32,000 bases of DNA from an uncultured Erysipelotrichaceae bacterium (GTDB lineage Bacteria; Bacillota_I; Bacilli_A; Erysipelotrichales; Erysipelotrichaceae), in NCBI GenBank assembly GCA_942493105.1, contig OW818668.1, positions 510,001 through 542,000 of the forward strand, in the 5' to 3' direction. Shown here one piece after another: positions 8,260 to 31,636 of the stretch; the first letter of the stretch is position 1; each line of letters begins with the position of its first letter. The notes below the pieces were generated by a model. It made no database searches. It worked only from the letters and a program-made list of their open reading frames with translations, and was not told the DNA's origin. The translations under genes were made by a program, and so were the position numbers.

Positions 8260-8260
8260 T

Positions 8261-8289: not shown

Positions 8290-8330
8290 ATCGGTATGGT
8301 TGAATATTCTTTTTTTTCAACCATACCGAT
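8290..8330. promoter_or_regulatory. Distal palindromic operator (copy 2) abutting the -35
   Basis: ATCGGTATGGTTGAA (8290-8304) and TTCAACCATACCGAT (8316-8330) form a perfect 15-bp inverted repeat with an 11-nt spacer. It is a near-identical direct copy of the 8221-8259 element, about 70 bp away. Confidence 0.6.
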
Positions 8331-10451: not shown

Positions 10452-11231
10452 AGATCTCCCTTACAAGAACATTATAGGGGGAAGATGTGACGAAAGTGTA
10501 AAGAATGAATATATTAAGTAGGTAATCCTCTAGAAGTATTTGATAGTTTGTTTATCAATTCAATTATCATTAGCTTTTTTCTGAATTCTTTAGCGAATTT
10601 AATAAATTCATTAATTCAACAACTGATAAGGCATCACTCATAAGGAAATCTCCAAGGTTAGAGAAACTATAGAATGAATCCAATAACCGCATGAACCAGA
10701 ATATATTCTGCGATGAAGACTCGTTAATTTTCTTGCTGATATATTCATGTTATTAAACAACGACAAAAGTCTATTCTCGTTGAGAAAATCGCTATGATGT
10801 TGTTCAACACAGTCGAATAGTTTATTCCCCCCCAGGATTCATCTTCTAGAATATGAATTTGGTATTGCGAATATTGTCACTAGTTGTATCTATTTAGAGT
10901 TGTGATAAGCTAGCTTTATTGGCCTAATACTAATAAAAAACTGAATTGATATTTCTGTTTATAGATTTTCATTATACCGCTTAGAATATGGGAATATTCA
11001 AAATCGAAAATGTTAAACTCTACTGGGATACTCTAACCCCATAAATGACACAAAAACAAGCATTCGAATCTAGTTAACACTTTGCATTAATATTTAGTTT
11101 ACTAATAGTTTTGTTTGAACACATTCTGTAAAGCATGAGTTCCTAATATCTGTTTCAATTTTATGACATCAAGATTCAGTTCACGATATCGTGACTCGCA
11201 CACCTTTTCTCAACTTAAAAATAAAGGTTAA

Positions 11232-12152
11232 TTACTTATATTGTTCCAATGCAACCAATAATTCTTGTATTATCTCTTGTCGTAACGAAGCCGGTTCAAG
11301 GACTTCACAATTTTTCCCAAGAGAAAGTATGAAACCTTTTGTAATATATTCGCCTTCCATTTCAGTCTCGAGGATCAATGTTTTTGAATCTAGATAGGTA
11401 ATCCTTGGATTGTTCCCAACTATGATTTCATCTACAAACCCACTATCTCGGATTTTTAGTTTCACTTTATACAATGGCAATGAAGTACCCTTTGTTACGT
11501 GAAGCGATGTCTTTAAAAATTTCTCATTCATAATCTCAAGATTTACTATTCGATTGAGTTTGTAGTTTCTCTTTTGATCAGGATTATCATCCTTTACAGC
11601 ATTGAAATACCAAGCATTATTTCTTTTCGTTAACTCAAACGGTTGAACAGTATAACTTTCGCTTTCGTCTGAATTAGGCTTATGGTATATTATTTTAACT
11701 TTAAAGCAATATTCAATCGCGTAGAGGAGTTGATCATAATATGTTGCCAGTTGTTCCTTTGGCATCGCTAAGGGAAAACCATTTACAACAGAAGAAATTA
11801 TGTCTTCAGATGCTCCACTTCTTTTCGATATTTTCTCAAGTGTGCGAATACAATCTTGTTGATTAAATATTGAGGTATCCTTTTCCATCAGTGATTTAAT
11901 ATTAAGTAATGTCTGATAGTCTTTTTGTGTAAATGGTATTCGTTGAAAAATACTTTTATTAGCAATATAGTATCCTCCATATTTTCCTTCATATTCTTCG
12001 ATTATTGCGCTCTCGTCATTGATCGCATCCTTGAGTCTCTTAACAGTTTTTGAAGAGACTCCTAAATGGTTTGCCAGTTTTTCCTTTGGTATCGGATCTG
12101 CTGAGTTTAGTAAGTGGTTTATTAATAGGTTGTAGAGTTGATAGTCTGACAT
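11232..12152 (-). CDS. HTH-WYL-domain transcriptional regulator (BrxR/CapW-like architecture)
   Basis: The N-terminal HTH is KEKLANHLGVSSKTVKRLKDAI. The WYL core is YTVQPFELTKRNNAWYFNAVKDD...RNYKLNRIVNLEI, followed by a C-terminal extension. The track start at 12164 is a TTG. The ATG at 12152 follows GGAGG by 5 nt and is preferred. Confidence 0.8.
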   Translation of the reverse strand: MSDYQLYNLLINHLLNSADPIPKEKLANHLGVSSKTVKRLKDAINDESAIIEEYEGKYGGYYIANKSIFQRIPFTQKDYQTLLNIKSLMEKDTSIFNQQDCIRTLEKISKRSGASEDIISSVVNGFPLAMPKEQLATYYDQLLYAIEYCFKVKIIYHKPNSDESESYTVQPFELTKRNNAWYFNAVKDDNPDQKRNYKLNRIVNLEIMNEKFLKTSLHVTKGTSLPLYKVKLKIRDSGFVDEIIVGNNPRITYLDSKTLILETEMEGEYITKGFILSLGKNCEVLEPASLRQEIIQELLVALEQYK

Positions 12153-12163
12153 AGATTCCTCCA

Positions 12164-12188
12164 AACCATACCCGTTTTGGGTATGGTT
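12164..12188. promoter_or_regulatory. Perfect inverted repeat; candidate WYL-regulator operator in the divergent intergenic region
   Basis: AACCATACCC (12164-12173), spacer GTTTT, GGGTATGGTT (12179-12188). This 10-bp perfect inverted repeat lies in the 77-bp gap between the two divergent start codons. Confidence 0.6.
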
Positions 12189-12205
12189 AAAGTATACACT
12201 ATACT
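12177..12205 (+). promoter_or_regulatory. Candidate SigA-type promoter for the PLD-ATPase gene
   Basis: TTGGGT (12177-12182), an exact 17-nt spacer, then TATACT (12200-12205). AGGAG (12215-12219) and the ATG at 12230 follow. The -35 lies inside the right arm of the inverted repeat. Confidence 0.45.
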
Positions 12206-12229
12206 GTGAGAAATAGGAGTGGATTGTCG

Positions 12230-14221
12230 ATGGAAAATTGCAAACTGGACTTATTTAGTGATTTCGCAGAAGAAAAGAGAACTAATTCTCTCAGTGTTGT
12301 TAAGCTAGACTTTATTGAAAGCTTCAATTCCAATTGGATGGATCTGTTTATGGGTTATAAGTTTTTGCATGCCATTACATTTTCATCACAATTATCATTT
12401 ATTGAAAAAGTCATAAAGGAGTTCAATTATGTTGAAATAATTTTTGGAAATGAAACAGTAATTGGCGAAGATATTTCTGCTGTACTTGCTTATCAACACC
12501 AAGTGATTACTCAAATAAATAACGCTCGTCCAGATATTAGGAATGAAATTATCCAGAGAATAGAAGATGGATCACTTGTGTTATGGGTTGCCAAGAAACA
12601 GCTTTCTCATGAAAAAATCTATTTACTGTCCGGTGATAAAAAAGTTGTAATTACTGGCTCAGCTAATTTGTCTTACGCTGCCTTTACAGGTCGACAGAGG
12701 GAAACTATCAACGAAATTACTGGTGATCTTGCATACAAGTATTATTTTGAACAGTTTGAAATTCTTAAGTCGACTTCATCAAATAAAGTTGAACCAAGGC
12801 ATATACGAGAGTATAAGACAAACATTATTGAAAATCTTGACAAGTTACCTATATCTGATGAAATTAAGGAAAAAAATACTGTTGAAATAATTCAAGCTGA
12901 TCCACAAAATGAATCAATTTTCTCATATTCCGTTCTTAAGGATCAAGAGAATCTAAAGCGATACATACCGCTTGATAATGTGAAAGCTAAGCTTTCATTT
13001 CCAAGTCTTATAAACTGGCAGAATAAGTACAAAATGAATAATAGTTTTAAAGATGGAGTAAAAACCGAATATCTCCCTCAACTAGAAATTGATTTTAGTC
13101 AAAAAAAGGTATTCTTGTTAGGCAGAGAACTTGATCTCCATCCACCGCTCGATGAAGTAAAAAATGATCTTCAGCTCTTCAAAGAATTCATGAAGGGTTA
13201 TGATTCCTTTAATGGTACAAAAGAAGAGATAGAGTTAGCTAAGCAAAGATATTACGCCTTTGCAAATTGGTTCTTTATTTCACCGTTATTAAGTCATTTG
13301 CGTTTACTGGCTTACCGACATAATAAGAAGCCAGATTCATTCCCAGTATTTGGTTTGCTCTTCGGGAACAGTAAAGCAGGTAAAACATCTTTTCTATCAA
13401 CCCTACTTTATTTCATGATTAAAGGCGATCCAAAGAACCCGGCACGTGATTTTACAGCGAAGACGATCAATGATATTCGATACACTGCAAAGGGCACTCC
13501 TATCATCTATGACGATATGGTTGCGAGCCGATTTAATGCACATGCAGGTGAGGTTGTCAAAAATGACTCTTATGGGTTGAACGAAGGATTAAACAACTAC
13601 CCAGCAATTGTTATAAGTGCAAATGAAGATGTCAAAGTTGTTACACAGGATCTTGCACGTCGAATTGTTACCTATCGAGTCTCAATAGGACTAGATACAA
13701 CTGAGGCTATGAAGAACAACTCAATTCGACGTATACAGAAAAACATCACAACTGCTCTATACCGTCATTTCTTGGGTATAGTTTTTGATCGCCTAGATAA
13801 TTTTATATCGCCGATGTACGACGAACATAAAGATGAATCAATTGATGTCTTCAAGTTCTCATCTGAAATCCTTATGGAGATTTTCGAAACTCTTGGTAAA
13901 GATGATATCCCTTCTTACGTTCGTAATTTAGTTATTGATGATTATTTTGATGAAAAAATTACGAGTACTTATGCAATAAAGGCAATACAAACTGCTTGGA
14001 AGTACAATCGAGATCGATTTGTAGTAAATAAAAAGCGTAATCTTTTAAGATTTAGCCTTAGCGAACAACACGAACTTAATAGAATTAAGAAGGAACTTCC
14101 CGATTCACTACAAGCAAAAGTATCTCATGATACATTGATTATGGATTTGGCCAAAGCTGTAGAATTCTTCGAAATTGATTTTCATAATTCGAACATTTTT
14201 GACCGACTACTAAATAATTAG
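12230..14221 (+). CDS. Fusion of a single-HKD PLD-family nuclease (N-terminus) and a P-loop NTPase with SF3-helicase-like motif spacing (C-terminus)
   Basis: The only HKD motif is SHEKIYLLSGD...VITGSANLS (H codon at 12608-12610). Walker A is GNSKAGKT (13364-13387). The Walker B-like motif is PIIYDDM. The motif C-like element is PAIVISANED. The track start at 12206 is a GTG. The ATG at 12230 has an AGGAG RBS 10 nt upstream. Confidence 0.7.
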   Translation: MENCKLDLFSDFAEEKRTNSLSVVKLDFIESFNSNWMDLFMGYKFLHAITFSSQLSFIEKVIKEFNYVEIIFGNETVIGEDISAVLAYQHQVITQINNARPDIRNEIIQRIEDGSLVLWVAKKQLSHEKIYLLSGDKKVVITGSANLSYAAFTGRQRETINEITGDLAYKYYFEQFEILKSTSSNKVEPRHIREYKTNIIENLDKLPISDEIKEKNTVEIIQADPQNESIFSYSVLKDQENLKRYIPLDNVKAKLSFPSLINWQNKYKMNNSFKDGVKTEYLPQLEIDFSQKKVFLLGRELDLHPPLDEVKNDLQLFKEFMKGYDSFNGTKEEIELAKQRYYAFANWFFISPLLSHLRLLAYRHNKKPDSFPVFGLLFGNSKAGKTSFLSTLLYFMIKGDPKNPARDFTAKTINDIRYTAKGTPIIYDDMVASRFNAHAGEVVKNDSYGLNEGLNNYPAIVISANEDVKVVTQDLARRIVTYRVSIGLDTTEAMKNNSIRRIQKNITTALYRHFLGIVFDRLDNFISPMYDEHKDESIDVFKFSSEILMEIFETLGKDDIPSYVRNLVIDDYFDEKITSTYAIKAIQTAWKYNRDRFVVNKKRNLLRFSLSEQHELNRIKKELPDSLQAKVSHDTLIMDLAKAVEFFEIDFHNSNIFDRLLNN

Positions 14222-14394
14222 TCTCCCATTTCTATATATAACTTGAGTTATCACTAGATTGCTATAATATCTTATACTTTAATTGACTATTTGTGAGCTC
14301 TCTGAACACTATATAAAGTTATATATTAATTCATCCTTTGGAATATGGCTTAATCAACTTGCGTTGGAATCAATGAGCGCTTGATCGATCACAG

Positions 14395-14447
14395 AAAAAT
14401 CCCCACATAGATACCATGAGATTTATTTTCGTGTCTACTCTATGTGG
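14395..14447 (-). terminator. Possible terminator of the 1245-aa gene
   Basis: CCACATAGA (14403-14411) and TCTATGTGG (14439-14447) form a 9-bp stem. On the minus strand it is followed by GGATTTTTCTGT. The 27-nt loop is long for an intrinsic terminator, so confidence is low. Confidence 0.3.
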
Positions 14448-14469
14448 TTAAATTTATTCAGTATAGCTT

Positions 14470-17400
14470 TTAAGAAGTCTCAAATAGATTAAATTCCTCC
14501 TTATTTCGTTCTGAAAAATGCTCTCTTTCGTGCGAAATTCTTGCATGTAATTGACTTAATAAATTAATTGCATATTCGTGAATTTTTGAATTTCTACTTT
14601 CAACAATATATTGAACTAGTGGAATTCGAGATGTTAATACGTCAGGTAATGTTTGATCCCAACTTCTTGGATATATCCGATCAATTAAGTTTTTGATTAT
14701 TTCTAGATTCGAAGTATTTTCAGCCTTTGAAATATAGAGTAACCCAAGATTTGTCCACGAACATTTTCCTTTGTCAATATCGTTGAATGGCAAGACGTAC
14801 TTCAATAGCAATTCATAACTATTATTCGTTTGTACCCACTTGACTAGAATCTCATCATCGATAAATGAAAGTGGACCTTGATGAAATCCATAAAACCCAG
14901 TTAAGAAATCATTTAGAAAATGACCTGAGTTTTCTGTATCATACCGGATAAATATATCAAGAAATTCTATTGGATAGTTCCTTATTATTGGCTCAAAAAC
15001 TTGATTTAAGTCACTAAACGATATGTACTCAACTTTTAAACAACTGTATAGTTTTTCGAAAATTTTTCTGGCTTGAACTTCATATTTATTTGAACCAAAA
15101 GTAGCTTTCGAGACAATTGAAAATTCATAGTTGATATGAGTATTCTTTGAAAATCGACTATCAAAGCGGTATCTCGATATAGAATCAGCTGATAAATCCA
15201 TTAATCTATCGTCAAATTTCGCCTTACTAATCGAAACACTTATAATGCTTATTTGAAGTTCAATTCCTTCATTAGTGTTTGGTACAAATTGAAAGATATC
15301 TATCATCTCTTCGATAGTTAGATCAACTAAAGTGTAGGCCAAATTCTTGAACTGTTTTAAAGATGTAGAGTCACCAACAAGTCCAGTTTTAATGAGTTGA
15401 ATAATATCACAATCAATTCTCACTGAAGATAAAAGATCTGGAAACATTCTTTTGGTTTTATCACTTGATAAAACCATTTGCATCGCTTCCTTTACTGTTT
15501 TCTTATCATCGATTTTTCCGCTTATCATACCTTTTAGCAACATAGGAGTGTTAGTATAATCTGAATTCGAGATATACTCAAAGACAGTATTAAAAAGTAA
15601 ATCAAATGGAATATCTGAACAAACAAGTCCCCTTCCAAAATATATCATTCGATAATTGTCTGACTCAAGTAACATAGAAAGATGTCTCTGAAAAAGTGTG
15701 AAATCCTTCGCAAACTGTTGGCCAATAGAAAATGCTTTCTCATCTATGTGTCTCTCATTTATATCCAAATCATCTTCTGAAATATAAACTCTTCTAGAGT
15801 TTGAAATATATACATTAAATTCATCGATTAAGTTATTTGGTTTTGTTTGTTCAGCCAAGCATTTAAGTCTCAAACGAATTGACTCTGGAATGTCTTTACC
15901 ACCAAAATGAAGAGTCTCTAAAACACTAATCCAGATTTCTGGCCAAGTTTCAGTTGTAATAACATTATTGATAATATTCTCTAGATGTCCCAACATTCCC
16001 AATTCCGTTAGTCCGGTAAAGTTATTTGATATTGTTTGTTTAAAATCACCTCTCAAATAATTATTTTCAATTTTTGATTGACAATAATCAAGAACTTTCT
16101 GGTACCAAGTTAATTGATCACCATATGTTTTTGGTTGATATCCATAGTCACGTTTCATTGCACCGAAATCAAAATTGTATCCATAAAAACTCGATGTTTT
16201 TAACATTTCATTAACTAGATGTAAACCAAAATCTGTCCGATTTGAATCGTCAGAAACAACTATTTCCTCTACAGCCTTCAATCTTTGCTCAACTGTAGCA
16301 TATGTTCCTGATAAAAATAGATGAAATAGATTTTCTACTCTATCTCTAATAGAGTATGTGTTCTCATTCTTTCCCTCCGAACAAGCGAATCTGAGAAGCA
16401 TAGAGATAACATCACTAAATCCAACATCATCATATCCGAGGAAAATGAGAATGTTAACAAAAGTATTATAATTCTCATTTTTTCTAGAAAAGAATTCCGG
16501 ATTAGTAATCGTCCCGATTCTATCTTTAATGACATCTGGGATTACAAAGGTGAGATTATAAATGATTTCAATATAAGAAGAATCGATGTTTTCAAAATCA
16601 TCAAAATAACCACTTTTATTAATAATCTCTTTTGAAGTGTTTTTTGCCTCGGTTGATGAGTGAAGAAATTTAAGTCTTCTTGAAAACGACAAAAGAGTTC
16701 TCCTATTATGCAGAAATACTTTTACAACTTCATCAGACCTATTCGCTTTTAAACATTTAATGGCCAATGCGTTTGCGAGAGCATGTGGAAGAACTGCTCT
16801 CATATTTCGTCTTACTTGAATTAACTTCATATCAACTAACAAATTAACATTCTCATAAACGTCTCGTGGGGAAATTCCGGAGATATTCGATAATATTCCT
16901 AATTCATTCTCTATGTTAAATGAAAATAGAAGTGAACACGCTTCCGCGGTCCTGGATAAAGGAACATTCAAAATATTCTGATTCATGAATAATCTGTTGA
17001 GTATTTGACTGCTGTTTAGAACCCCAATTGTTTGACTCTCGTTAATATTTGATGCCAAATATTTGGCCATTCTAAAATTCCCCCCCGACATGGAAATGAG
17101 TGTTTCTAAATTCGCGGCATTAATGTTCCCGAAATTCGATTTTATAAACATCTCTATAGTGTGATCTGAAGAAACAGACATATAGTAATTTGTCGTATCA
17201 ACTAAATCATCTTCTTTTGCATCGAACTCTATAGTAAGTAATGAAACTAAACTATTTGGGCTCTTACAGAGGTCGGATAAAACTGTATGCATATTCTTCT
17301 CACAATTATCAACTACAAGAATAATACGTTTATTGAGTTTTAGTAAATATTGAATCATTGTGATTGGTTCAGGGGTTGGATTATTGCTCATATCACAGTA

Positions 17401-18207
17401 AATTAGTATGTTAGCATCTTGAAAATTATCACCTTCATTGTTTGAGAATAATGAAAAAGCAAATCTCGTTTTCCCAACCCCGGACAATCCAGCAAGCCTA
17501 ACTATAGTACTAGGTTTTGATAATAAAATTCGAATTTCACTCAATGCAGAAACAATATCTAACTTATCAGCATCATTATATGAGTCTCTATATAGGCAAG
17601 ACTTTTCATCAAAGACCCATTCCTTTTTGAAACTAGTATCAGAATTTGACCATTCAACAAATGATAGCCATCCTGTAACATTTAGTCCCGTCCGATTTTG
17701 AACCCAAATGCACAAAGAAGGATACTCATTTACCCAAGAAACAATTTTATTGCAATCATAAAATGCAAAGGAAATTTTGCTTTCAGGATCAATGTCTACT
17801 AGACTGCAGCCAATTGCATTTTCGCGCAATATTTGTTCACGATATGTTACATCTGATCTACTGCTTGCAATAATATATTCACCATTATTTTCACGTAAAT
17901 ACGTAAAAATTTCGCGAATTTTCCCATTAGGCTTTATTTCCTCTAAAATTTTCCTATAGGTCATGTTTGGAACCTTGACCTGGATAATAGTGTTTGGATT
18001 TGAAATATAATCTTCAAAATCAAAACTGTTAGTTGACTTAACCAATACATCGACACCACCATCTTTTGCATCCTGGTTTCCACCATAATATACAGATTTC
18101 GAATTTATACCATGTTTACTTAATGTTGCTTCGCATAGTAGACCGATTAAAATCCTCAGATCTTGATCTGATAAATTTTTTATTTCAGTTTTAGTAATTT
18201 CGAACAT
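14470..18207 (-). CDS. Large STAND-type NTPase with an N-terminal Mrr/PD-(D/E)xK-like nuclease domain and a roughly 800-aa helical C-terminal region (Avs/bacterial NLR-like)
   Basis: The N-terminus carries DAKDGGVDVLV...(22 aa)...IIQVKV, matching the Mrr_cat-style D-GG-h-D...Q-x-K pattern. Walker A is GLSGVGKT (aa 240-247, about 17467-17490). Walker B is RIILVVDNCE. The GxP-like element is SGGNFRMAKYLA. A long repeat-poor, helix-rich tail follows. A GAGGT RBS lies 8 nt upstream of the ATG at 18207. Confidence 0.7.
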   Translation of the reverse strand: MFEITKTEIKNLSDQDLRILIGLLCEATLSKHGINSKSVYYGGNQDAKDGGVDVLVKSTNSFDFEDYISNPNTIIQVKVPNMTYRKILEEIKPNGKIREIFTYLRENNGEYIIASSRSDVTYREQILRENAIGCSLVDIDPESKISFAFYDCNKIVSWVNEYPSLCIWVQNRTGLNVTGWLSFVEWSNSDTSFKKEWVFDEKSCLYRDSYNDADKLDIVSALSEIRILLSKPSTIVRLAGLSGVGKTRFAFSLFSNNEGDNFQDANILIYCDMSNNPTPEPITMIQYLLKLNKRIILVVDNCEKNMHTVLSDLCKSPNSLVSLLTIEFDAKEDDLVDTTNYYMSVSSDHTIEMFIKSNFGNINAANLETLISMSGGNFRMAKYLASNINESQTIGVLNSSQILNRLFMNQNILNVPLSRTAEACSLLFSFNIENELGILSNISGISPRDVYENVNLLVDMKLIQVRRNMRAVLPHALANALAIKCLKANRSDEVVKVFLHNRRTLLSFSRRLKFLHSSTEAKNTSKEIINKSGYFDDFENIDSSYIEIIYNLTFVIPDVIKDRIGTITNPEFFSRKNENYNTFVNILIFLGYDDVGFSDVISMLLRFACSEGKNENTYSIRDRVENLFHLFLSGTYATVEQRLKAVEEIVVSDDSNRTDFGLHLVNEMLKTSSFYGYNFDFGAMKRDYGYQPKTYGDQLTWYQKVLDYCQSKIENNYLRGDFKQTISNNFTGLTELGMLGHLENIINNVITTETWPEIWISVLETLHFGGKDIPESIRLRLKCLAEQTKPNNLIDEFNVYISNSRRVYISEDDLDINERHIDEKAFSIGQQFAKDFTLFQRHLSMLLESDNYRMIYFGRGLVCSDIPFDLLFNTVFEYISNSDYTNTPMLLKGMISGKIDDKKTVKEAMQMVLSSDKTKRMFPDLLSSVRIDCDIIQLIKTGLVGDSTSLKQFKNLAYTLVDLTIEEMIDIFQFVPNTNEGIELQISIISVSISKAKFDDRLMDLSADSISRYRFDSRFSKNTHINYEFSIVSKATFGSNKYEVQARKIFEKLYSCLKVEYISFSDLNQVFEPIIRNYPIEFLDIFIRYDTENSGHFLNDFLTGFYGFHQGPLSFIDDEILVKWVQTNNSYELLLKYVLPFNDIDKGKCSWTNLGLLYISKAENTSNLEIIKNLIDRIYPRSWDQTLPDVLTSRIPLVQYIVESRNSKIHEYAINLLSQLHARISHEREHFSERNKEEFNLFETS

Positions 18208-18747
18208 ACATACTTACCTCAAGACATAATTTGTCTATTTATAACGTTTATTTATGGTCTGTTTCGGCTTTTTGTGGAGTAATTTTGAAAACATCCCTTA
18301 ACTCAAAACCACTTATTAATGCTCATATCCAACAAACATTAAAATGATGTCATCTAAGTTTTTACTCATTGTTTTTATTGTACCACACGAATGCTAAACA
18401 CTTATGCCGGCTTAAAAAACTCATCACGGTATCGCATTCACTCTTGGAGGAGCGTTTGGATCATACTAGCACTCACACACATTCCATTACACTTTTATTA
18501 CGACTTTTATGTAAATTGAAATTCATAAAATTGTATTGTAAAAATCACAACTATTTGAAGCGGATCCACAAAGGATTCACGAAAGCAGAAAGTGAATTGA
18601 ATACCTAATTTAAATCCCAATATCGCACAGAAAGCTAAATCAGTTTACACAAGATTTCTGACACTATATTCTGTTTTGCTACTCTCTTAATTTGGTACTT
18701 AACAAATAGACACTTAATAATTCAAATCATTCAAGTATAATATCCTT

Positions 18748-20430: not shown

Positions 20431-20473
20431 TTATAGACACTTTATACCCAGGTAATTATTGTAAAATGTAAAT

Positions 20474-23047: not shown

Positions 23048-23647
23048 ATGAGTTACAAATATTACGATGATCATGCTGAAGAATACTACGAGAGTTCTTT
23101 CAATGCCAACATGAGTGAAACGATGGAAAGATTCTTGCACTATGTCCCAAAGGGTGCCACCATTCTTGATGCTGGTTCTGGTACAGGCAGAGACACAAAG
23201 ACCTTGCTTGATCTTGGCTATACCGTAAAGGCATTTGATGCTTCTATAGAAATGGTAAAGATGAGCGCTCTATATACGGGAATTGAAACTCTACACGCAA
23301 AGTTTGAAGAGATTGAATATTGTGATGAATTTGATGGGATATGGGCTTGCGCATCTTTGTTGCATGTTGATAGGCACAGCCTTGATCATGTTTTCTTTTT
23401 GCTTAAAAAGGCACTCAAGAAAGATGGGATTCTATATTGTTCTTTCAAATCCCGGGAAAAAGACTACATAAAGGATGGACGTCATTTCACTTGTTTTACT
23501 AATGAGAATCTCGCTAAATATTTGGAAGGAATTAATCAGTTTTCGATAATCGAAATTTGGGATTCCAGGGATGTTAGGGAGGATCGAAAAAGTGAAGTCT
23601 GGGTTAATTGTATTCTCAAGAATGGATCACAAGTTACTAAAAAGTAG
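23048..23647 (+). CDS. Small class-I SAM-dependent methyltransferase (Methyltransf_11/25-like; not a recognisable DNA methyltransferase)
   Basis: Motif I is ILDAGSGTGRDT, followed by the acidic loop FDAS and post-motif GIWACASLLHV. There is no (D/N/S)PP(Y/F/W) motif, no PCQ/ENV motif and no target-recognition domain. The ATG directly abuts the helicase TAA (taaATG), and an AGGAG RBS lies 7 nt upstream inside the helicase gene. Confidence 0.8.
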   Translation: MSYKYYDDHAEEYYESSFNANMSETMERFLHYVPKGATILDAGSGTGRDTKTLLDLGYTVKAFDASIEMVKMSALYTGIETLHAKFEEIEYCDEFDGIWACASLLHVDRHSLDHVFFLLKKALKKDGILYCSFKSREKDYIKDGRHFTCFTNENLAKYLEGINQFSIIEIWDSRDVREDRKSEVWVNCILKNGSQVTKK

Positions 23648-23862
23648 ATTTGTATATTTGTAAATAAAAGGACTAGAAGTAGCCCTGTCTTCCAAAAATA
23701 GTATCAGTTCATCAATGGTCTGGATATTCTCATATGCGGGTATTTTTAACACAATCATTTCCTTACTAGGCTAAACTAGTTATAGTCTAGTATTCCTTTA
23801 TTCACCTAAATTGTTAAGAAAATGAAACCCAAACTTTTAATAATAGGAAACTTTAGTCTAGC

Positions 23863-26826
23863 CTATTTTTTATATTGATGTCCCACTCTAGTGAATGGTG
23901 ATAGGTTAATATAGAGTGTATTGACATCACCTTTTTCCCATTGGCGTTTTTCTAATGTTTTGAACAAATCTTCCTGTCGAGGTTGACCCAAGGTGAGCCG
24001 ATACAATGACAAAACATTAATTAATCGGTCATATTTGATTTTATCTTGACTATATGGGTACATAGGAACAATTCTTTCGATCTTGACCGAGAATGGGAAA
24101 TTCTCGGGTAAACACCAGTATGGAACCAAGTCCGAATTATTTCCCTTCAATTCAATAGAAGCCTTAGCAAGCATTTCTTCCCAGACGTTTTTATGGAAAT
24201 CCATTTTACCAAAATTGCTGTTGGCAATATTTTGTCGTATAGCATGACACATATATCTGTTGATGCGCCCTTCGCGCTGTTCCAAATCAACAGGGTTGGA
24301 TGGGAGGTTCCAGTGCATGATTTTTCGGCTATAGCTATGAAAATCAAGACCTTCTTGACCTATTGAAGTGGTGGCCAGCACGAAAGGTCTAAACGGAGAG
24401 TTAAAAGCGGTCCTGATGTTTTCAGTTCGCTGAATGGTTACTTCACTGATGGTCGCATTGAAATAGCCAGTCGCAAAATGGGTGCGCATGTTGACTTGTG
24501 ACTTGTTTTGCTCGAATTGTTCTCTAGTCTTGATCTGTAGTTGGACAGTATTTATAAAAGCCCCTTTCATGGAGTTGAGCAATTGCTCATCCTTTTCTCC
24601 TAGGACATAAGCGTATTCATCCAATACTGCTTGAAGATTGCCCTCAGCACAATAGCTGAATACATTCTCGTAATAAAACTCATCTTTTGTCTCATATATA
24701 AGATCGATGATGGCAATTGACTCAGGTTTATTGAATAAGGACACAAAACTTGCAGCTAGGTTTGAAGCATATACTTCATTCTTGAAAATTCTCAATGCAC
24801 ATACTGCAGGGGAACCGATCGCCATAGTTGCTAAGGTTTCAGCTGCATTTGATGTGATGGTTAGAAGTTTGTCTGTTGAAGGCTTTCCATCCAAAATTTT
24901 CAGAAGTTCAATCAACTGGGTTGCCCCACCGCGTCCTGCCATGATGTTGTGTTGTTCTGCGATCAGATCAATTTTTAGTTGAATGATCTGTGTCAATTCT
25001 CTTTTAAGTTGAGACAATGGCTTATCTTTGTGATCAAGTGGGGCATAGAGACTAGCCAAATATTGTGAGGCATATTTAACCAGATCTTCAGTCTCTCCCT
25101 TAAGTCTTGCCGTAATTGCGCGTCTTATTTCACTAGCGAAGTATTTTGTGTCGATATTTCCAGTTTTCTGATTGAGCTTACCAACGGTTCTTCTTTCAGC
25201 TTCATAGGAAGTGAGAACAGCAATCATGCGGGGAACCATTTCCCAACTTGAAAACACCAGTAATTTTGAATAATCTTTGTTTTGGTGGAAGTAGCCTTTT
25301 GTTTGATAGTAAGGTAAAGACGCGGGAATCCATAGTAAAAGTTCAGGTCCGCCTTTATCCAAAGGGAACACTTCCTGGAAGAGCATGTCTAGACGCGCAT
25401 TGTTGGTAGGAATGAGTTTATAGTTATTGATCCTATTCTTTCTGATTAGAGCGGTTTCTGCTTTTTGAAGCTGAGTGTAATTTCCACTCTTTTTTAAAGC
25501 ATCAACAACTTTCTCATTGACCTTATATTTCCCCATAATCGATAAGAGATAGGGGGAGGATTTTACATATTCGATTGGAAAGTTTCCAAGTTCCAAACTT
25601 ATCATGAGTTGTTGCATTTGAATGTAAGAATGGATGTCTTCAGGCGTTATCGACATCTCCTTTACTTTAGAAGTGTCGATCATCGCATTATTCATTCTTT
25701 CGGTTCGACATACGTTTCTGTAAAGTTCATCCTCAGCCTTTTTTTTCTGTACAATCAGAACTGTGATGTCATCGGATTTCAACTCTCCTAAAACAGCCGA
25801 ATAACTACTCCATACTTGGTGGAAATACTCCTTCTTTGTTTTGGTAAATAACAGGAAATCCATTACGTCGATGAACTCTTTATAGTGTTCTGTCTCACCA
25901 TTGGATAATTCCTCTATGGTTGTGTAGGGTTTATACGGGGTTGCTGATAAGAGCAATACTTTAGTGTTCTCATTGAAGAGAAAACGGTTTGAAAACATAG
26001 ATCTTTCGTTGCTTTGAACAGCATTCTGGTTGTTATGGTCAGCTATTAGATCTTTGAAGCGCTGGAACTCATCCATGATGATAAGATCAGGCTCCAATTT
26101 TTCCAAACTGATTTGAGCAAAAAGCTGTCTCAGTTCAGTGATGATTTTTGAGCGCTCTGACTTTTTCACCGCAAAAACATCGGTCAATTGTACAATGGAG
26201 AGAATCTTTTGGTACAGTGTGTCCGTCATTTTTTTATTAAGCGCCGTTATCATGTCGTTGATGTAGGATCCGTGTTTATTGTCACATAAGGTCACTTGCT
26301 TTTCATACCATTGTATATTGGATTCCCAATATTTCATGTTTTCTAAGTGTTGTAAAAGATCATTTAACTTGCTCGAGTATAAACCTAAATCCCTGAACCG
26401 GACCAAAAAAACGTAAAGCAATGCCCTTTCCCAATAAGTTCCTTCGCCATTTTTCATAAAAGATGTGGCTGGAGTTAGTGGTATCAATTGGCGTGTGTTG
26501 TTTTTCTCGCCGGCCTTCTGATATATTTTAAGATGGAGCATAGATAAACGACTTTCGGCGATATTTATACAATCATTCTCATCCACACCAAGTTTGCGAA
26601 AATTCTGATTAGCGATGTTCATATTCGAACAGACATAGATAATCCTAAACATAGGGTCTTTCATCTCGGTATGCCAATCATAAACTTTACGCACAACTTC
26701 TCTTGCAATGATTGTTTTCCCCAAGCCGACCTCGTCGGCTAATAGGACACGATTTTGATGATCATCTCTGTAAATCTGCAAAATCCGGTCCGCTGTCGCA
26801 ATCTGAAAATCCTTAGCATTTATCAT
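23863..26826 (-). CDS. SNF2-like SF2 helicase/ATPase
   Basis: Motif I is LADEVGLGKT, motif II is LIIMDEFQRF, motif III is LLLSATPYKP, motif V is TTSIGQEGLDFH and motif VI is LEQREGRINRY. The start overlaps the upstream PLD gene's stop by 4 nt (ATGA). Confidence 0.8.
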   Translation of the reverse strand: MINAKDFQIATADRILQIYRDDHQNRVLLADEVGLGKTIIAREVVRKVYDWHTEMKDPMFRIIYVCSNMNIANQNFRKLGVDENDCINIAESRLSMLHLKIYQKAGEKNNTRQLIPLTPATSFMKNGEGTYWERALLYVFLVRFRDLGLYSSKLNDLLQHLENMKYWESNIQWYEKQVTLCDNKHGSYINDMITALNKKMTDTLYQKILSIVQLTDVFAVKKSERSKIITELRQLFAQISLEKLEPDLIIMDEFQRFKDLIADHNNQNAVQSNERSMFSNRFLFNENTKVLLLSATPYKPYTTIEELSNGETEHYKEFIDVMDFLLFTKTKKEYFHQVWSSYSAVLGELKSDDITVLIVQKKKAEDELYRNVCRTERMNNAMIDTSKVKEMSITPEDIHSYIQMQQLMISLELGNFPIEYVKSSPYLLSIMGKYKVNEKVVDALKKSGNYTQLQKAETALIRKNRINNYKLIPTNNARLDMLFQEVFPLDKGGPELLLWIPASLPYYQTKGYFHQNKDYSKLLVFSSWEMVPRMIAVLTSYEAERRTVGKLNQKTGNIDTKYFASEIRRAITARLKGETEDLVKYASQYLASLYAPLDHKDKPLSQLKRELTQIIQLKIDLIAEQHNIMAGRGGATQLIELLKILDGKPSTDKLLTITSNAAETLATMAIGSPAVCALRIFKNEVYASNLAASFVSLFNKPESIAIIDLIYETKDEFYYENVFSYCAEGNLQAVLDEYAYVLGEKDEQLLNSMKGAFINTVQLQIKTREQFEQNKSQVNMRTHFATGYFNATISEVTIQRTENIRTAFNSPFRPFVLATTSIGQEGLDFHSYSRKIMHWNLPSNPVDLEQREGRINRYMCHAIRQNIANSNFGKMDFHKNVWEEMLAKASIELKGNNSDLVPYWCLPENFPFSVKIERIVPMYPYSQDKIKYDRLINVLSLYRLTLGQPRQEDLFKTLEKRQWEKGDVNTLYINLSPFTRVGHQYKK

Positions 26827-28562
26827 AGTTTAACCTTCTTGGCAGCAGTTTTGAACATTTCCAACATGACTCTTAATTCTGTTGTTGCGACTTCCGGATC
26901 CAAACGGTTCATTACTTCTTCAATCTCTGATATTTTCTTGGGATCAGTGACCACCGACTTCAATAATCGTTCATACAAAGCAGAGGGAATCATATCTTGC
27001 TTCTGTTCCCCTGTTAGAAATTGTCTCTCAAAATAGATTTGCTGTTCCAACGAGACTTCTGCATAATTGTCAGCCAGCATAAAAGTTACATAAGCAAGGA
27101 AACCACCTTTATCTTGGATAACTGATTTGTAAATCATGTTGTCGCGTTCAAAGATGGGTATACCTTTTGTTTGAATTTTTATAACAGCAAAGTCCTGAAG
27201 ATGATTGATGACATAAAACTCCGATAAATCAACCAGTTTTAAACCGGAAATATTGGTTTCCCTTTCCAACTTGACAAAAGCATTAGGAGAAGTGATTGGT
27301 CTGATAAACACGGATTCAGAGGGCTTACTACAAATTACTTTAATTTGGTATCGATCCCCATCTGGAGAAACAATGGCTCCAGTAAAACTACGCAAGACGT
27401 CAATTAGCGGGGAACTGATTTCTTCAGATTCTGGATCAAGTTGCTGATCAAAAGATTCGAGTTTTTCAAATGGACAAGGTTCAGTCTGAAGCAAGTCTTT
27501 ACTCACTGTATAGAAACTTGTAACGCCAGATTTGAATTTTAACCCAACCATGAACTCTATGTTTCTATGAAAGGCATTTTCTGAGGCATTAAGGGAACCT
27601 AAATAAAGATAATTACCGCTGGCGGATCCTTTAAAGTAAATCTTGGCATGAATGTCTCGTCTTGAAGTTGCTTCCAGAACATCCTCTTCAAGAGCATCCA
27701 GATCAACCATACCATCTTTAACGATATACACTTCTTTGAATTGATCGAATATCTTTCTCGTGAGTGAACTCTTTCTAGTAATCAATATTTTATCCTTGGG
27801 TCGTTTAGTTATCCGATCTATAGTCCCTTCAGATAGGAAAGGGGAAATAACGATGAGACTGTTAGCATCAGCCAGCAGAGTTTCCGCCTTTACAGAATTC
27901 TTCAAACCAAAATGATGAAAACTGACTTTTTCAAATTGACCCAAGCCTTCAAAATTAGATACATTTAAAATTTCGTTTGCGAGAGTTCGAATTTTCTTGG
28001 CTTTGGTTGAACTTGCATGGTCTGCCACGAAATTCAACAATTCCGATAATGGATTATTATCATCATTTTTCTTAGCATTTTCCTCAGATGTTGGTCTACC
28101 CGTAAGTTCAACAGCAATGTCCAAACTACGATCGAAAGTGAGATTGCGACTCAAAGTAATAATTTTAATAAGTGAATTACCACTTTTGTTTACATATTTC
28201 AAAAACCAAATTTTGGGGTGGAAGTTGGTATCTTTACGCAGTTTTATTTCAAAGACGCTTTGCTCAAGTAAGGTGAATACTGAACGATATTCTTGAGGAA
28301 CTTTGATTGAACCAAGATTACAGAACACAGCGAGTCTATCGCTGCTTTTTCTAATAGCCTCAAGCAAAAAGAATGGGTTGTTTCGGTGAGTGCTGTCAAG
28401 ATCATCCATCATGCCCAATGAAATTGGTATACCAAGAAGTGCCTCTAAATCCAAAGAATAAGTAAGTCCTACCGCAAACTCTAGTTGGAATCCAGGATCT
28501 GGTTGTAATATATCCCCCATGTTTAGACGATTTATTTCCTGATGAAACAATGTGCTAGCCAT
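26823..28562 (-). CDS. Two-HKD phospholipase-D-family nuclease with an unassigned C-terminal half
   Basis: HKD motif 1 is FHPKIWFLKY...LSRNLT (H115, about 28218-28220). HKD motif 2 is IHAKIYFKG...LGSLNASENAF (H305, about 27648-27650). It overlaps the upstream gene by 8 nt. Confidence 0.85.
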   Translation of the reverse strand: MASTLFHQEINRLNMGDILQPDPGFQLEFAVGLTYSLDLEALLGIPISLGMMDDLDSTHRNNPFFLLEAIRKSSDRLAVFCNLGSIKVPQEYRSVFTLLEQSVFEIKLRKDTNFHPKIWFLKYVNKSGNSLIKIITLSRNLTFDRSLDIAVELTGRPTSEENAKKNDDNNPLSELLNFVADHASSTKAKKIRTLANEILNVSNFEGLGQFEKVSFHHFGLKNSVKAETLLADANSLIVISPFLSEGTIDRITKRPKDKILITRKSSLTRKIFDQFKEVYIVKDGMVDLDALEEDVLEATSRRDIHAKIYFKGSASGNYLYLGSLNASENAFHRNIEFMVGLKFKSGVTSFYTVSKDLLQTEPCPFEKLESFDQQLDPESEEISSPLIDVLRSFTGAIVSPDGDRYQIKVICSKPSESVFIRPITSPNAFVKLERETNISGLKLVDLSEFYVINHLQDFAVIKIQTKGIPIFERDNMIYKSVIQDKGGFLAYVTFMLADNYAEVSLEQQIYFERQFLTGEQKQDMIPSALYERLLKSVVTDPKKISEIEEVMNRLDPEVATTELRVMLEMFKTAAKKVKL

Positions 28563-29718
28563 GTTGATCCAATCCTTTTAAGATGTCCGTGACGATTGTT
28601 AAAACCGTCGGATACCGGTATGACAGTTTATAGTTGTGAATTGGATTTTTATATCGATTGTCGCTGCTGTTAGAAAGCTTTGCTCGATCACCTTTGATGA
28701 GTTTCTCTCGTCGAATAATTAACCTCTTAGCTTCCTCAAGATTGTTTGTTTTTATGTTTTCGTCGAATCTCCTTAGAAACTCCGAAGTTTGGCGTGAACA
28801 ATGAGTAATCCGTATCACAGCCTCGAGGTCAATAGACTGATAGTTCTGAAGCCATTGATCAAAGAGACTTACGATGTTTGAGTCTTTGCCTTCCGAGTAG
28901 ATGACATTGAATAGCAAATGTGCACCATAAATAAAGTTTGCAAAATCTTGAGCCAAGTGAACTAATCGACCCATCTCTTCTGGCAAGTCATTGGGGTTGA
29001 TGTTCTCAAAATTATTTGGTAATTGTTTTTTACTAAGAATATTTGACAAAAGTGTATCTTTGGTTTTTGGTGAGTTTACAATTTGCTGATAAAGAAAGTT
29101 TGCCTCTTCCTTGGTTAAATCAATCGAGGCATCATTCATGAAGTCATAATCTGGGGTTAAAGGAATAAACACTTCCAACCCATCATAACGACTATCTTTA
29201 TCATCAGCAGCATCTTCAGATGTTTCTAATTTTAAAGAAAGATCATGTGATCTCTTTCTTTTTAGTGTTATTAGTTGACATGTATCATCCAATGAAATGT
29301 CATTATTTGTAACGATCCCTAAAACTCTCAGTCCGTTCCAATAGGTGCCAGATGGTTTATACTTCACAGAACCACCCTCGTTTAGTTTACGAGCGCCGAT
29401 GATCCCACTGGTGCCTGCGACTGAATTCTTAACCAATGTTACTACAAGATCGTTCTCTCGATCTTCAATCCATTTTCTAACCTTACCACTTTCCACTCTC
29501 GAATCGGTTTTTGCCTTTTGAAAAAGATAAGGGATCAAGACGAAATATTTAGCTCTAGTATGCAAGGTTGATATACCAGGAAACATCAGATTAGAAAAAG
29601 CGTCCCTAATTGTACCAATCCCCAACTCATCGAGGGCAGTTTGGTTTCTTATATTTCTGAGTATATAAAGAATCTTGTTGCGTTCTTCTCTTGAATAATC
29701 GACCCATCCTAATTTCAT
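28555..29718 (-). CDS. Conserved hypothetical protein, DUF6361-like; first gene of the PLD/SNF2 operon
   Basis: From the ATG at 29718 the N-terminus reads MKLGWVDYSREERNKILYIL...LDELGIGTIRDAFSNLMFPGISTLHTRAKYFVLIPYLF. This matches my recollection of the DUF6361 lead motif, which I could not verify here. The ATG at 29718 follows AGGGGAG. The track's upstream ATG at 29754 has no RBS. Confidence 0.5.
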   Translation of the reverse strand: MKLGWVDYSREERNKILYILRNIRNQTALDELGIGTIRDAFSNLMFPGISTLHTRAKYFVLIPYLFQKAKTDSRVESGKVRKWIEDRENDLVVTLVKNSVAGTSGIIGARKLNEGGSVKYKPSGTYWNGLRVLGIVTNNDISLDDTCQLITLKRKRSHDLSLKLETSEDAADDKDSRYDGLEVFIPLTPDYDFMNDASIDLTKEEANFLYQQIVNSPKTKDTLLSNILSKKQLPNNFENINPNDLPEEMGRLVHLAQDFANFIYGAHLLFNVIYSEGKDSNIVSLFDQWLQNYQSIDLEAVIRITHCSRQTSEFLRRFDENIKTNNLEEAKRLIIRREKLIKGDRAKLSNSSDNRYKNPIHNYKLSYRYPTVLTIVTDILKGLDQHG

Positions 29719-30071
29719 GTGCTCCCCTTCATTAAAACCATCTCTAAAGACCATTATACTATTTGATTATGTCAATTTATTTTGTATAACAGGGAAATTC
29801 AACCTTGTAGCTTAAACTTTTGGAATTTATTAGATTTATAGGAGAGCAGTCACAGTACTATCATGCTGTAAGAAAATGTTAGATACCCTTATACATATAG
29901 TTTAGTCGTCTTTCGGTGGGTGAGTCAAATCTTATCTCTGATAGATTACAACAAAAGCTATCTATTTCATTAAGAAATATAATTCATATTGAGAGTTTAG
30001 TTTCACTAAACTGTTTATAATTGTTCAAATTTAACGAAACATTTTTCAAAAAATTGAGTTATTCAACCATG

Positions 30072-30935
30072 CTACTTTTCTTCTTTTTTATGTAACTTTA
30101 TGTTGAGCTTTCCTAACTGCTTTCCTAGTTTTTGGGCTAGATCTTTAGTTGTGTCCATCGTTTCTTTTGAAATGTCCTTGGTAACTTTACCAATCTTGTC
30201 CATATTCTGGGCTAAGTTTTTAGTTGTATCTATCGTTGCTGCAGATAAATCTTTTGCGAAGTCTTTGGTAGCTTTTTCAAATTTTTCTTTCGCTTCTTGT
30301 TTTTCTTCTTCTTTTTTGATCTGTATAGATTTGCTTTCTAAAATGACTTCATCCGTTACATAATAAAGCCAAACTCGTTCACCATTTTTTAGTTTCGGCC
30401 CGATTTTTTGGTTATTTGGATAAGTGACTCTTGTAACCTGACCATCTTCTTTATTCGCAAAACTTAAGTTGGGTGTTTCAATTTTCTCAGAAACCCTTAA
30501 GCCCAAACTTTCAAGATCTTCTCGTGCTTCATATCTATTAAGCCCAATGACCATTGGAATACTGAACTCACTTAATGCACTTCCCAATAAGTCTTTACTC
30601 TTTTCAATCACTTCTTGAGTGAGATAGTAAACCTTAACTGCTGTTCCTGGACTTACTCTTGATCCAAACTTAGGTTCTGAACTCGTAACTTTGTTTTCAC
30701 TCTCATCTGCATACGCAATATTTGGTTTCGCAATGGCAAATGTTGGAAGCAAGTGAAGTTCATTAAGAACTCGAGTTGCTTCTTCAATGTATACATCCTT
30801 TAAATCTGGAATTTTAATGAGTGCTTTCTGTTGTTCATAGGCATCAGAACCTATTTTCAAACCTAAATCTATAACTTCCGGTACTTTTTCTGCAAGTGCA
30901 TCTACACTTTTTAATGCTGACTTAATCAAACCCAT
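30072..30935 (-). CDS. Protein with two PASTA-like domains and a C-terminal charged tandem repeat; no kinase or PBP domain
   Basis: The first PASTA-like unit is IKIPDLKDVYIEEATRVLNELHL...SEPKFGSRVSPGTAVKVYY. The second is FSIPMVIGLNRYEAREDLESLGLRV...VTYPNNQKIGPKLKNGERVWLYY. The C-terminal repeat is TIDTTKNLAQNMDKIGKVTKDIS followed by TMDTTKDLAQKLGKQLGKL. Confidence 0.65.
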   Translation of the reverse strand: MGLIKSALKSVDALAEKVPEVIDLGLKIGSDAYEQQKALIKIPDLKDVYIEEATRVLNELHLLPTFAIAKPNIAYADESENKVTSSEPKFGSRVSPGTAVKVYYLTQEVIEKSKDLLGSALSEFSIPMVIGLNRYEAREDLESLGLRVSEKIETPNLSFANKEDGQVTRVTYPNNQKIGPKLKNGERVWLYYVTDEVILESKSIQIKKEEEKQEAKEKFEKATKDFAKDLSAATIDTTKNLAQNMDKIGKVTKDISKETMDTTKDLAQKLGKQLGKLNIKLHKKEEK

Positions 30936-31636
30936 TTTAAAATCCCTCGCTTTCTAAAGTAGTTAAATGGTCATATGTTAAATTAATCATAACACCTCGA
31001 ATGTTAATTTGGACCATATAATAAAAGTTTAGATCTCATTCATATACCAGATTGAGTAAAGAAAAAAACATAATAAGTTCACCTATGCAGTTTAGTAATT
31101 TTAACTACACAATTTCAAATGTAAAATCTATAATTTGGAATGCTAATCTCGTTATAATGAATTCCTTCTTCTTGGTTCACCTTGATTGATTGCATTCTTC
31201 ATCAATGCTGCAATGATATAAAGTGGTAACAACACTATAACTATAAACACATTTCTTAGAAAGGTTTTCATTCACGGTTTCCTTTGTGGGTTCATATCAC
31301 TATCTTAGAATGTTTTGGTGTTCGCATTTTGGAATGTCCAAATCAAAGGACATTATTGCTTTGAGAATTAATTCATTCTGGATAAGAACTGCACTCCATA
31401 AATGGGAAGTTAAACATACTTACTTTCAGGAATAATATACTTAGAATCTTTTTCAAATTCAGAAGAGGCTGGGAACCAGTTCAATCTATAACATAAAAGG
31501 ACCCATGATAAATCTTGGTTCCTTTTTACTACAATTTATTATCAATCAAATCAATGATTTATCTATACACTATTTTGGGTAATGGTTATTGATATGCGTT
31601 AAAATATAAGAAAGAAATGAAAGCGTTGGGGTGAAT

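Follow-up and report, generated by a model that had tools for sequence, protein, structure and literature searches.

How does a bacterial chromosome come to carry some 20 kb of nuclease and helicase genes side by side, with no gene for mobility among them, and what would such a block be for? The question is posed by a stretch of 32,000 nucleotides (nt) from an uncultured Erysipelotrichaceae bacterium (the window; positions below are window positions unless a genome label precedes them), which corresponds to positions 510001–542000 of a closed 2.03-Mb genome (G000; contig OW818668.1, assembly GCA_942493105.1) with a GC content of 38.2%. An earlier note, drawn up from the letters of the sequence, had described positions 10452–31636 as an AT-rich island of nuclease and NTPase genes lying between a two-component system and an ABC exporter. 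We compared this locus with 20 genomes of the genus, of which G001–G008 are referred to by label (G007 is the closest), and with 120 other genomes of the family, mostly metagenome-assembled; further genomes and metagenome bins carry L-numbers. The comparison indicates that the stretch is, with good probability, the left two-thirds of a defence hotspot that is flanked by core genes and whose modules are turned over singly. Judged from its gene content, the island is a horizontally assembled, integrase-less, and partly AT-rich one of the predicted anti-phage defence type.

Flanks and cargo of the variable interval

The genes to the left of the island are conserved and run in the order ctpA, a pcsB-like gene, ftsX, ftsE, yitT, and vanZ, followed by an AbiEi/AbiEii pair and the two-component system, which consists of a histidine kinase (8356–9768, minus strand) and an OmpR-type response regulator (9765–10451, minus strand), both recognized by Pfam. 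The two genes and ~60 bp of conserved sequence upstream of the regulator form an anchor (8356–10516), and the two-component system was present in 17 of the 18 genus genomes sampled. In G007, G001, and G006, the left flank and the two-component system are syntenic with those of G000, and the cargo beyond them differs. At the right end of the interval, RmuC and membrane-protein genes are conserved. The distance from the response regulator to RmuC was measured in six genomes and amounts to 8.6, 13.8, 38 (G000), 50, 54, and 69 kb, the orientation being constant; no empty site was seen, and the smallest occupancy of the interval is 8.6 kb.

We then searched the relatives with 20 kb of the island as a DNA query. 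The whole block is absent from all 20 genus genomes and from the 120 other family genomes, the latter giving only scattered weak matches. Only isolated pieces of it were returned from the genus, namely the gene for a NERD-UvrD protein in G001 (80% nt identity), the 3′ end of the same gene in G005 (69%), the Azaca operon in G002 (64–67%), and a PLD-ATPase module in G008 (65%). What occupies the same slot elsewhere is again largely defence cargo. In G001, it comprises PDC-M34A/B, an HNH protein, a type II restriction endonuclease-like protein, NERD-UvrD, a PDC-S15-like gene, an LmuA-like gene, and an XRE/nucleotidyltransferase pair; in 11 further relatives, the genes within 9 kb of the response regulator include matches to Mokosh-like systems, PDC-S01, PsyrT, and DpdF; and the cargo of G006 gave weak PADLOC matches only. 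These alignments agree with the earlier view of the block as an island, as relatives do not carry the same block and a compositional shift is present (see below).

The kinase side of the two-component system carries cargo as well. The AbiEii toxin gene (6338–7420, minus strand; PADLOC, expectation value [E] 1e-90; Pfam AbiEii) lies outside 10452–31636 and is preceded by the gene for the AbiEi antitoxin/regulator (7410–8213, minus strand; PADLOC E 7e-44; Pfam DUF6577), and the GC content of the two genes is 31–33%, in the 1st–4th percentile. In the slot between the kinase and vanZ, AbiE is found in G000 and G007, SoFic in G001, and Azaca in G002. Thus, the two-component system is bracketed by two variable defence slots, of which the one on the kinase side is the smaller.

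The ORF-free stretches at the two ends of the island (open reading frame, ORF) had been proposed as its junctions, which proved right for the left end and wrong for the right. The left junction is sharp and falls at ~10,512–10,517 (~10,515): G000, G001, G002, and G006 align through the start of the regulator and ~60 bp upstream of it and are unrelated beyond. Just inside lies an AT-rich non-coding spacer (10517–11047) with no ORF of 45 amino acids (aa) or more, in which homology to relatives and convincing gene remnants were both lacking; a weak match at 10,580–10,750 was considered as a remnant and dismissed.

On the right, the stretch at 30936–31636 is ruled out as a junction, since the exporter next to it is absent from the 20 genus genomes and homology to G007 returns only at 35,318. 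The genes of this heterodimeric ABC exporter start at 31631 (plus strand), run to the end of the window at 32000, and continue beyond it to 35,156; the pair has a GC content equal to the genome mean and no DNA homologue in those genomes, and it is accessory rather than backbone. The earlier note had taken the exporter as the border of the island. Against G007, which is ~90% identical at the aa level in the flanking genes, the variable interval reaches 35.3 kb, where homology resumes at an XRE/DUF6036-nucleotidyltransferase cassette followed by an AEC transporter; G007 then lacks 37,820–38,645 and an 8.4-kb operon with phosphotransferase system (PTS) and ceramidase-like genes at 38,763–47,192. 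Against the backbone common to G001, G006, and G007, the interval extends to ~47.2 kb; the first backbone genes, at ~47,200, encode two small membrane proteins and RmuC.

The supposed right junction instead contains a gene fragment. In the ORF-free stretches searched for pseudogene remnants, the only convincing one was found at 31286–31435 (plus strand), where a gene for a membrane protein of ~101 aa survives as its truncated C-terminal part (~27 aa); tblastn matched it to intact genes in G006 and G002 and in a further two, more distant, Erysipelotrichaceae (E 8e-7 to 2e-5). In those relatives, the intact gene lies inside the same interval with matching strand and order, and the order of the remnant relative to the response regulator, a helicase-methyltransferase pair (see below), and RmuC is that of L027.

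Two further observations were made to the right of the window. The XRE-HTH (helix-turn-helix; 193 aa) and DUF6036 nucleotidyltransferase (240 aa) genes, at window-equivalent positions 35309–36602 (G000:545309–546602), are kept in the same interval in G007 (72–90% aa identity) and G001 (53–70%); no PADLOC model covers them, and the cassette looks like an AbiE/MenAT-like toxin-antitoxin variant. The segment G000:547820–557192 (window-equivalent 37820–47192) holds a 3-hydroxyisobutyrate-dehydrogenase-like gene and the 8.4-kb operon, which encodes a PRD/Mga regulator, two neutral-ceramidase-like proteins, a 343-aa protein, and a mannose-type PTS IIA–D. Both are present here and absent from G007, indicating that the plastic interval also takes up metabolic cargo.

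Defence units of known families

The 10 ORFs between 11232 and 30935 fall into five defence units, with a single gene left over as an orphan. PADLOC, Pfam, and fold searches bore out the inventory first read from the sequence, with its nuclease folds (PLD twice, Mrr-like, NERD, and Vsr/DUF559-like) and NTPase or helicase modules (SF3-like, STAND, SF1, DEAH SF2, and SNF2), and the ORF map confirmed that the units are laid out in alternating divergent and convergent fashion.

The largest protein (1245 aa; 14470–18207, minus strand) was assigned by PADLOC to Avs8, or PD-lambda-4A, a family reportedly going back to Vassallo and colleagues in 2022. Members of the PD-Lambda-4 family are Mrr-nuclease/STAND receptors that are activated by the phage major capsid protein, and their partner Avs8B is dispensable for defence (bioRxiv 10.1101/2025.07.02.662641; 10.64898/2026.01.04.697583). 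The protein resembles them in its full-length match to the PD-Lambda-4_A model (E 3e-178, residues 1–1239 against positions 3–1279 of 1283), in an N-terminal Mrr-type nuclease motif, read by eye, in the Walker A (GLSGVGKT) and Walker B (ILVVDNCE) motifs of its STAND NTPase, and in a long helical sensor; no Pfam model matched these domains, and a PDB sequence search was uninformative. It differs from the described systems in that its host belongs to the Bacillota and is not a Gammaproteobacterium, and in that no Avs8B gene is present (no co-directional ORF beside 14470–18207, no PD-Lambda-4_B match). If it works as the published receptors do, Avs8 would bind major capsid protein, oligomerise, and release its Mrr nuclease, leading to abortive infection.

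Azaca is complete, its three genes lying in one operon on the minus strand with overlaps of 8 and 4 nt. These encode ZacA, a DUF6361 protein (28555–29754; PADLOC E 2.8e-91, Pfam DUF6361 E 5.5e-23), ZacB, a PLD nuclease with two HxK motifs at H115 and H305 (26823–28562; PADLOC E 1.6e-135; uninformative in a PDB sequence search), and ZacC, an SNF2/SF2 helicase with the motifs GLGKT and DEFQ (23863–26826; PADLOC E 1.5e-271). The system (ZacABC) is said to stem from the work of Millman and colleagues in 2022. The operon matches known Azaca in its overlapping DUF6361, two-HxK PLD, and SF2 helicase genes and in its full-length PADLOC matches; it differs in that the host is only distantly related, and a modified-DNA target is here assumed by homology. 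Azaca cuts modified T4 DNA, and all three Zac proteins are needed to cut T4 DNA (bioRxiv 10.1101/2025.07.10.664194); it is for BmAzaca only that the literature describes protection from phages with hypermodified DNA and cleavage of that DNA. On that published mechanism, the PLD nuclease and helicase complex would degrade hypermodified phage DNA.

A third unit is the 560-aa fusion of a NERD nuclease with an SF1 (UvrD-like) helicase (18748–20430, plus strand; Pfam NERD and UvrD), which matched the PADLOC models RTasNERD-Hel (E 6e-89) and NERD+UvrD (E 7e-26) and would probably act on phage replication intermediates in an Nhi-like manner. Its homologue in G001 (83% aa identity) is on the contig of the response regulator, ~9.5 kb from the regulator. 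The divergent spacer between the Avs8 and NERD-UvrD genes contains a dispersed intergenic repeat of ~120 bp (18544–18666). Its sole other copy in G000, at 964712–964832 (76% identity), lies upstream of a gene for a 909-aa PLD-type protein in another low-GC segment, beside QueC-like genes. In G007, the repeat has 14 matches, 12 of them abutting a contig end, which indicates that it is multi-copy there; the one internal copy examined has no adjacent transposase-sized ORF.

The orphan gene (30072–30935, minus strand) is on the strand of ZacA, 317 bp upstream of it, and encodes a 287-aa protein with two PASTA domains (Pfam) and a repetitive, Lys/Glu-rich tail with TKD..AQ repeats. Its GC content at third codon positions is 26% (5th percentile). 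Neither a signal sequence nor a membrane-spanning segment is obvious in the protein, and the five genus genomes nearest to G000 gave no match to it.

Two unnamed modules

The gene at 20474–23047 (plus strand) encodes an 857-aa protein composed of a PD-(D/E)xK (Vsr/DUF559-like) nuclease domain, a DEAH SF2 motor (Pfam ResIII and Helicase_C), an HTH domain, and a C-terminal helical domain; it has 2925 homologues. In an AlphaFold2 model, the N-terminal domain has the alpha-beta-beta-beta-alpha-beta topology of a restriction-endonuclease-like fold, with invariant residues D157, E170, E171, and K193, and among 34 homologues REase_MTES_1575 was matched weakly in 2 and HTH_17 in 15. A Foldseek search with the whole model was dominated by the motor and gave no independent name for the nuclease domain. 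The motor is closest to SauUSI, RadD, and XPB, and the PDB sequence match to SauUSI (7clg, E 2e-28) covers the helicase region only.

The next gene (23048–23647, plus strand) abuts the helicase stop codon with no intergenic base, is translationally coupled to the helicase gene, and encodes a 199-aa class-I S-adenosylmethionine (SAM)-dependent methyltransferase (Pfam Methyltransf_25, _11, and _23). It consists of the Rossmann core only, has no DPPY-type motif, and in NCBIfam matched only small-molecule methyltransferase families, all below cut-off. The pair is conserved in five lineages: in every other lineage examined, an orthologue of this methyltransferase (37–55% aa identity) adjoins the helicase orthologue, and the gene order of the pair varies, the methyltransferase being either downstream or upstream and overlapping. 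In two Erysipelotrichaceae with a kinase only 43% identical, the pair lies ~2.2 kb from the orthologous response regulator, and its identity there (53–55% aa) is similar to that of core genes such as yitT (58%). The helicase-methyltransferase pair may therefore be the oldest resident of the hotspot, or it may have been captured repeatedly and independently.

A limited literature search found no published description of this pair. It resembles the type IV enzyme SauUSI (PDB 7CLG), to which its motor core is most similar, in having nuclease and translocase in one polypeptide; it differs in that the nuclease is PD-(D/E)xK instead of PLD, in the presence of an HTH domain, in the lack of a match to DUF3427 (the C-terminal reader), and, from type IV enzymes in general, in its conserved class-I methyltransferase partner. 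Membership of the SauUSI family was accordingly ruled out, as only the motor aligns, the N-terminus is PD-(D/E)xK, and no DUF3427 was detected. Given the conservation of the pairing, the nuclease/DEAH translocase would work with a dedicated small SAM methyltransferase, which may serve as an unusual kind of self-marking enzyme or may have a nucleotide or protein signal as its substrate.

Since NERD-UvrD, the helicase-nuclease, and the methyltransferase (18748–23647) are read in one direction, the first two genes separated by 43 bp and the last two directly abutting, the three could form one system, and in Lachnospiraceae loci a NERD/AAA_19 gene indeed lies two genes from the methyltransferase-helicase pair. 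We consider this improbable: the NERD-UvrD gene of G001 has no helicase-methyltransferase pair downstream and precedes an unrelated PDC-S15-like gene instead, and in four other lineage contexts the pair stands with no NERD gene nearby. We thus treat NERD-UvrD and the helicase-methyltransferase pair as separate units.

The second unnamed module (11048–14259) is a homology block of 3.2 kb that contains two divergent genes. One (11232–12164, minus strand) encodes an HTH-WYL-WCX regulator with BrxR/CapW architecture (Pfam WYL, WCX, and HTH_11; PADLOC WYL E 1e-20), and the other (12206–14221, plus strand) encodes a 671-aa fusion of a single-HKD PLD nuclease (Pfam RE_NgoFVII/PLDc_2) and an SF3-like P-loop ATPase. 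The latter contains HEK at residue 135, GSANLS, a Walker A motif (GNSKAGKT) at 387, and IIYDD; at least 1475 homologues were found, it had no PADLOC match, and a PDB sequence search was uninformative. Its AlphaFold2 model (mean predicted local distance difference test score [pLDDT] 77) matched in Foldseek the Cch helicase of SCCmec (E 5e-6) and the NgoAVII R-protein (E 4e-4), and next the D5/E5, Rep40, and SaPI SF3 helicases, so that the SF3-like assignment of the ATPase, first proposed from sequence, holds. NgoAVII and CglI likewise couple a PLD nuclease to an ATPase, and the N-terminal single-HKD PLD domain is similar to the NgoAVII R-protein by both sequence and fold; in contrast to these systems, the ATPase here is an SF3-like one (Cch/D5 type) within the same polypeptide, a cognate C5 methyltransferase is missing, and control is apparently by a WYL repressor.

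A perfect 10-nt inverted repeat, AACCATACCC-N5-GGGTATGGTT (12164–12188), is a candidate operator. It is placed at the upstream edge of the control region between the divergent genes, where the left arm begins on the annotated TTG start of the regulator at 12164, and it is identical in the copy of the module in the metagenome bin L043. That copy is 90.4% identical at the nt level over 3.2 kb and lies between a type I restriction-modification (R-M) system and an integrase/SIR2 region; in G008, the two genes recur as a divergent pair (50% and 58% aa identity) at an unrelated chromosomal site. Architecture, divergence, and palindrome all match the BrxR/CapW-type WYL regulators of defence operons, and the predicted WYL repressor would probably sit on the 10-nt palindrome and silence the PLD/SF3-like ATPase until an infection cue arrives.

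Three side observations concern this module. In an Eubacteriales genome (L044:2889–6083), a homologue of the PLD/SF3-ATPase (40% aa identity) is divergent from a Methyltransf_21 (FkbM-type) gene and not from a WYL gene, and the family may thus use alternative partners. Genes for an HTH_26 protein and a DUF4379 protein of 495 aa lie on a 2.1-kb segment that occurs twice in the genome (G000:1879669–1881804 and 388133–390251) and, at 83% nt identity, adjoins the WYL/PLD-ATPase module in L043 (6189–8318); the segment is possibly a small cassette that is mobile or has been duplicated. Finally, the 9-mer GGTATGGTT was counted 17 times on either strand of the genome, against ~15 expected, and five of the 17 sites fall in two places, three upstream of AbiEi (8222–8327) and two forming the WYL palindrome (12164–12188). 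This clustering may reflect shared or cross-talking operators of the two defence units on either side of the two-component system.

Composition and origin of the island

The GC content of 10452–31636 is 34.6%, against 38.2% for the genome, and ranks at the 2.9th percentile among windows of the same length (z = −2.1); in the leftmost 13.4 kb of the island, it falls to 33.4%. The description of the island as AT-rich thus holds overall and for the genes in 11232–23047, that is, the WYL regulator, PLD-ATPase, Avs8, NERD-UvrD, and DEAH helicase genes (2nd–14th percentile); it does not hold for the methyltransferase gene and ZacABC, which are at the genome mean (32nd–53rd percentile), Azaca in this respect being unlike the rest of the island. 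Synonymous codon usage is ordinary throughout the island genes, and the genome contains 12 segments of comparably low GC that together account for 11.8% of its length. The compositional shift is therefore genuine yet moderate, patchy, and common enough for this genome.

Domain and tRNA scans supported the earlier statement that the locus is devoid of mobility genes. No tRNA, tmRNA, or other Rfam family was found, and no integrase, transposase, or recombinase domain was detected in the scanned ORFs between 11.2 and ~48.0 kb, a set that does not include the two exporter ORFs or those for PTS IIB/IIC/IID. Likewise, the search for att-like repeats, direct or inverted, between the two proposed junctions returned matches of 11–12 nt (longest exact repeat, 11 nt), which is at chance level (shuffled sequences: mean 10.8, maximum 15), no plasmid or phage record was matched by megablast, and in a terminator/promoter scan the terminator counts were near shuffle expectation.

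These results bear on whether the block could be one degenerate mobile element (an integrative island, an integrative and conjugative element, or a prophage remnant) that was inserted once and later lost its integrase and att sites. The low regional GC, the sharp left junction, the dispersed repeat copy inside the island, and the proximity of the WYL-PLD module to a phage-type integrase in another bin would fit such an origin. It is nonetheless very unlikely, as GC varies by up to 7 points between units, each unit is distributed separately among relatives, colinearity with distant relatives is seen for both the helicase-methyltransferase pair and the small-gene remnant, the ORFs scanned across 37 kb yielded neither integrase nor transposase, junction repeats do not rise above chance, and plasmid and phage sequences gave no match. 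Rather, the heterogeneity of GC between units, their unit-specific distributions among relatives, and the recurrence of the WYL/PLD block elsewhere indicate that the island is a mosaic of modules with separate histories and not one uniform insert. In the proposed hotspot, defence modules would be gained, lost, and swapped singly in the slots, most likely by recombination that involves no dedicated integrase.

Discussion

The locus follows a pattern known from other bacteria. The core defence hotspots cDHS1 and cDHS2 of Pseudomonas aeruginosa have fixed core flanks, varied cargo, and lower GC (Johnson et al. 2023, PMC10250203), include many genes of unknown function, and are not accounted for by any single mobile-element family (PMC10250203); the defence-island hotspots of E. 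coli offer a second comparison (PMC10121019). The interval described here shares with both the fixed core flanks, the genome-specific sets of defence genes, the large share of genes without a known function, an overall, if patchy, lowering of GC, and the lack of a single mobile-element family. It differs from them in belonging to the phylum Bacillota, in its anchors (the promoter of an OmpR-type regulator and RmuC), in the arrangement of two slots around one two-component system, in that no flanking tRNA or tmRNA was seen, and in the evidence itself, which here comes from ~12 species-level genomes and for the cDHS and E. coli hotspots from thousands of isolates.

Several points weigh against a defence hotspot with singly exchanged modules. 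The interval also holds non-defence genes (the ABC exporter, the AEC transporter, and the PTS/ceramidase-like operon) and is to that extent a zone of general plasticity, not one reserved for defence. Gain and loss were deduced across species rather than among genomes of one species, with no empty site to compare; an exact-protein look-up found no identical response-regulator protein from other strains on record, and the closest relative is ~90% identical at the aa level and its assembly breaks at the junction. In addition, most of the relatives are metagenome-assembled, all functions are assigned by homology, and for the PLD-ATPase, NERD-UvrD, and helicase-methyltransferase proteins no characterized close relative was found. 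That the nuclease and helicase genes instead serve housekeeping DNA repair or recombination of the core genome, as the resemblance of the helicase cores to RadD, XPB, and UvrD and the nearby RmuC might suggest, is scarcely credible, given that the genus as a whole conserves none of the units (single units or operons occur in isolation in only 5 of 20 genomes), that Azaca and Avs8 defence models are matched over their full length, and that the genes lie beside AbiE and toxin-antitoxin-like cassettes.

How would such a set of nucleases spare the host chromosome? The earlier note had found no canonical DNA methyltransferase and concluded that self and non-self must be told apart in another way. 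The first part is literally true, as no DNA-methyltransferase family (N6_Mtase, DNA_methylase, or N4) was matched by any island ORF in Pfam or NCBIfam, and classical type I–III R-M was ruled out by the lack of a cognate DNA methyltransferase with DPPY or PCQ/ENV motifs; what it overlooked is the SAM methyltransferase at 23048–23647. The second part fits the published mechanisms of Avs8 and Azaca, which, through capsid sensing and the cutting of modified DNA, respectively, need no DNA methyltransferase, and it goes too far for the helicase-nuclease unit, where the conserved methyltransferase partner makes an unconventional methylation-based safeguard conceivable. For the WYL unit, architecture and palindrome suggest that the safeguard is likely transcriptional gating. 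Self/non-self discrimination in the island would thus probably proceed through protein sensing, modified-DNA recognition, and transcriptional gating rather than through a classical R-M methyltransferase.

Collectively, these results describe a textbook core-hotspot defence island, and the general understanding of such islands is unchanged by it. Its value lies in the conserved anchors of the two slots, the regulator promoter with RmuC and the kinase with vanZ, between which defence cargo of uncultured Erysipelotrichaceae can be collected, and in placing Avs8 and Azaca, characterized in Proteobacteria and Bacillus, in a poorly studied lineage of the Bacillota. It lies also in two uncharacterized and widespread modules that sit in a strongly defence-enriched context, which is the usual route by which new systems are discovered. 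The helicase-methyltransferase pair is the more interesting candidate and the WYL-gated PLD/SF3-ATPase the second; that at least one of them represents a widespread, hitherto undescribed anti-phage system is a tentative proposal, somewhat short of an even chance.

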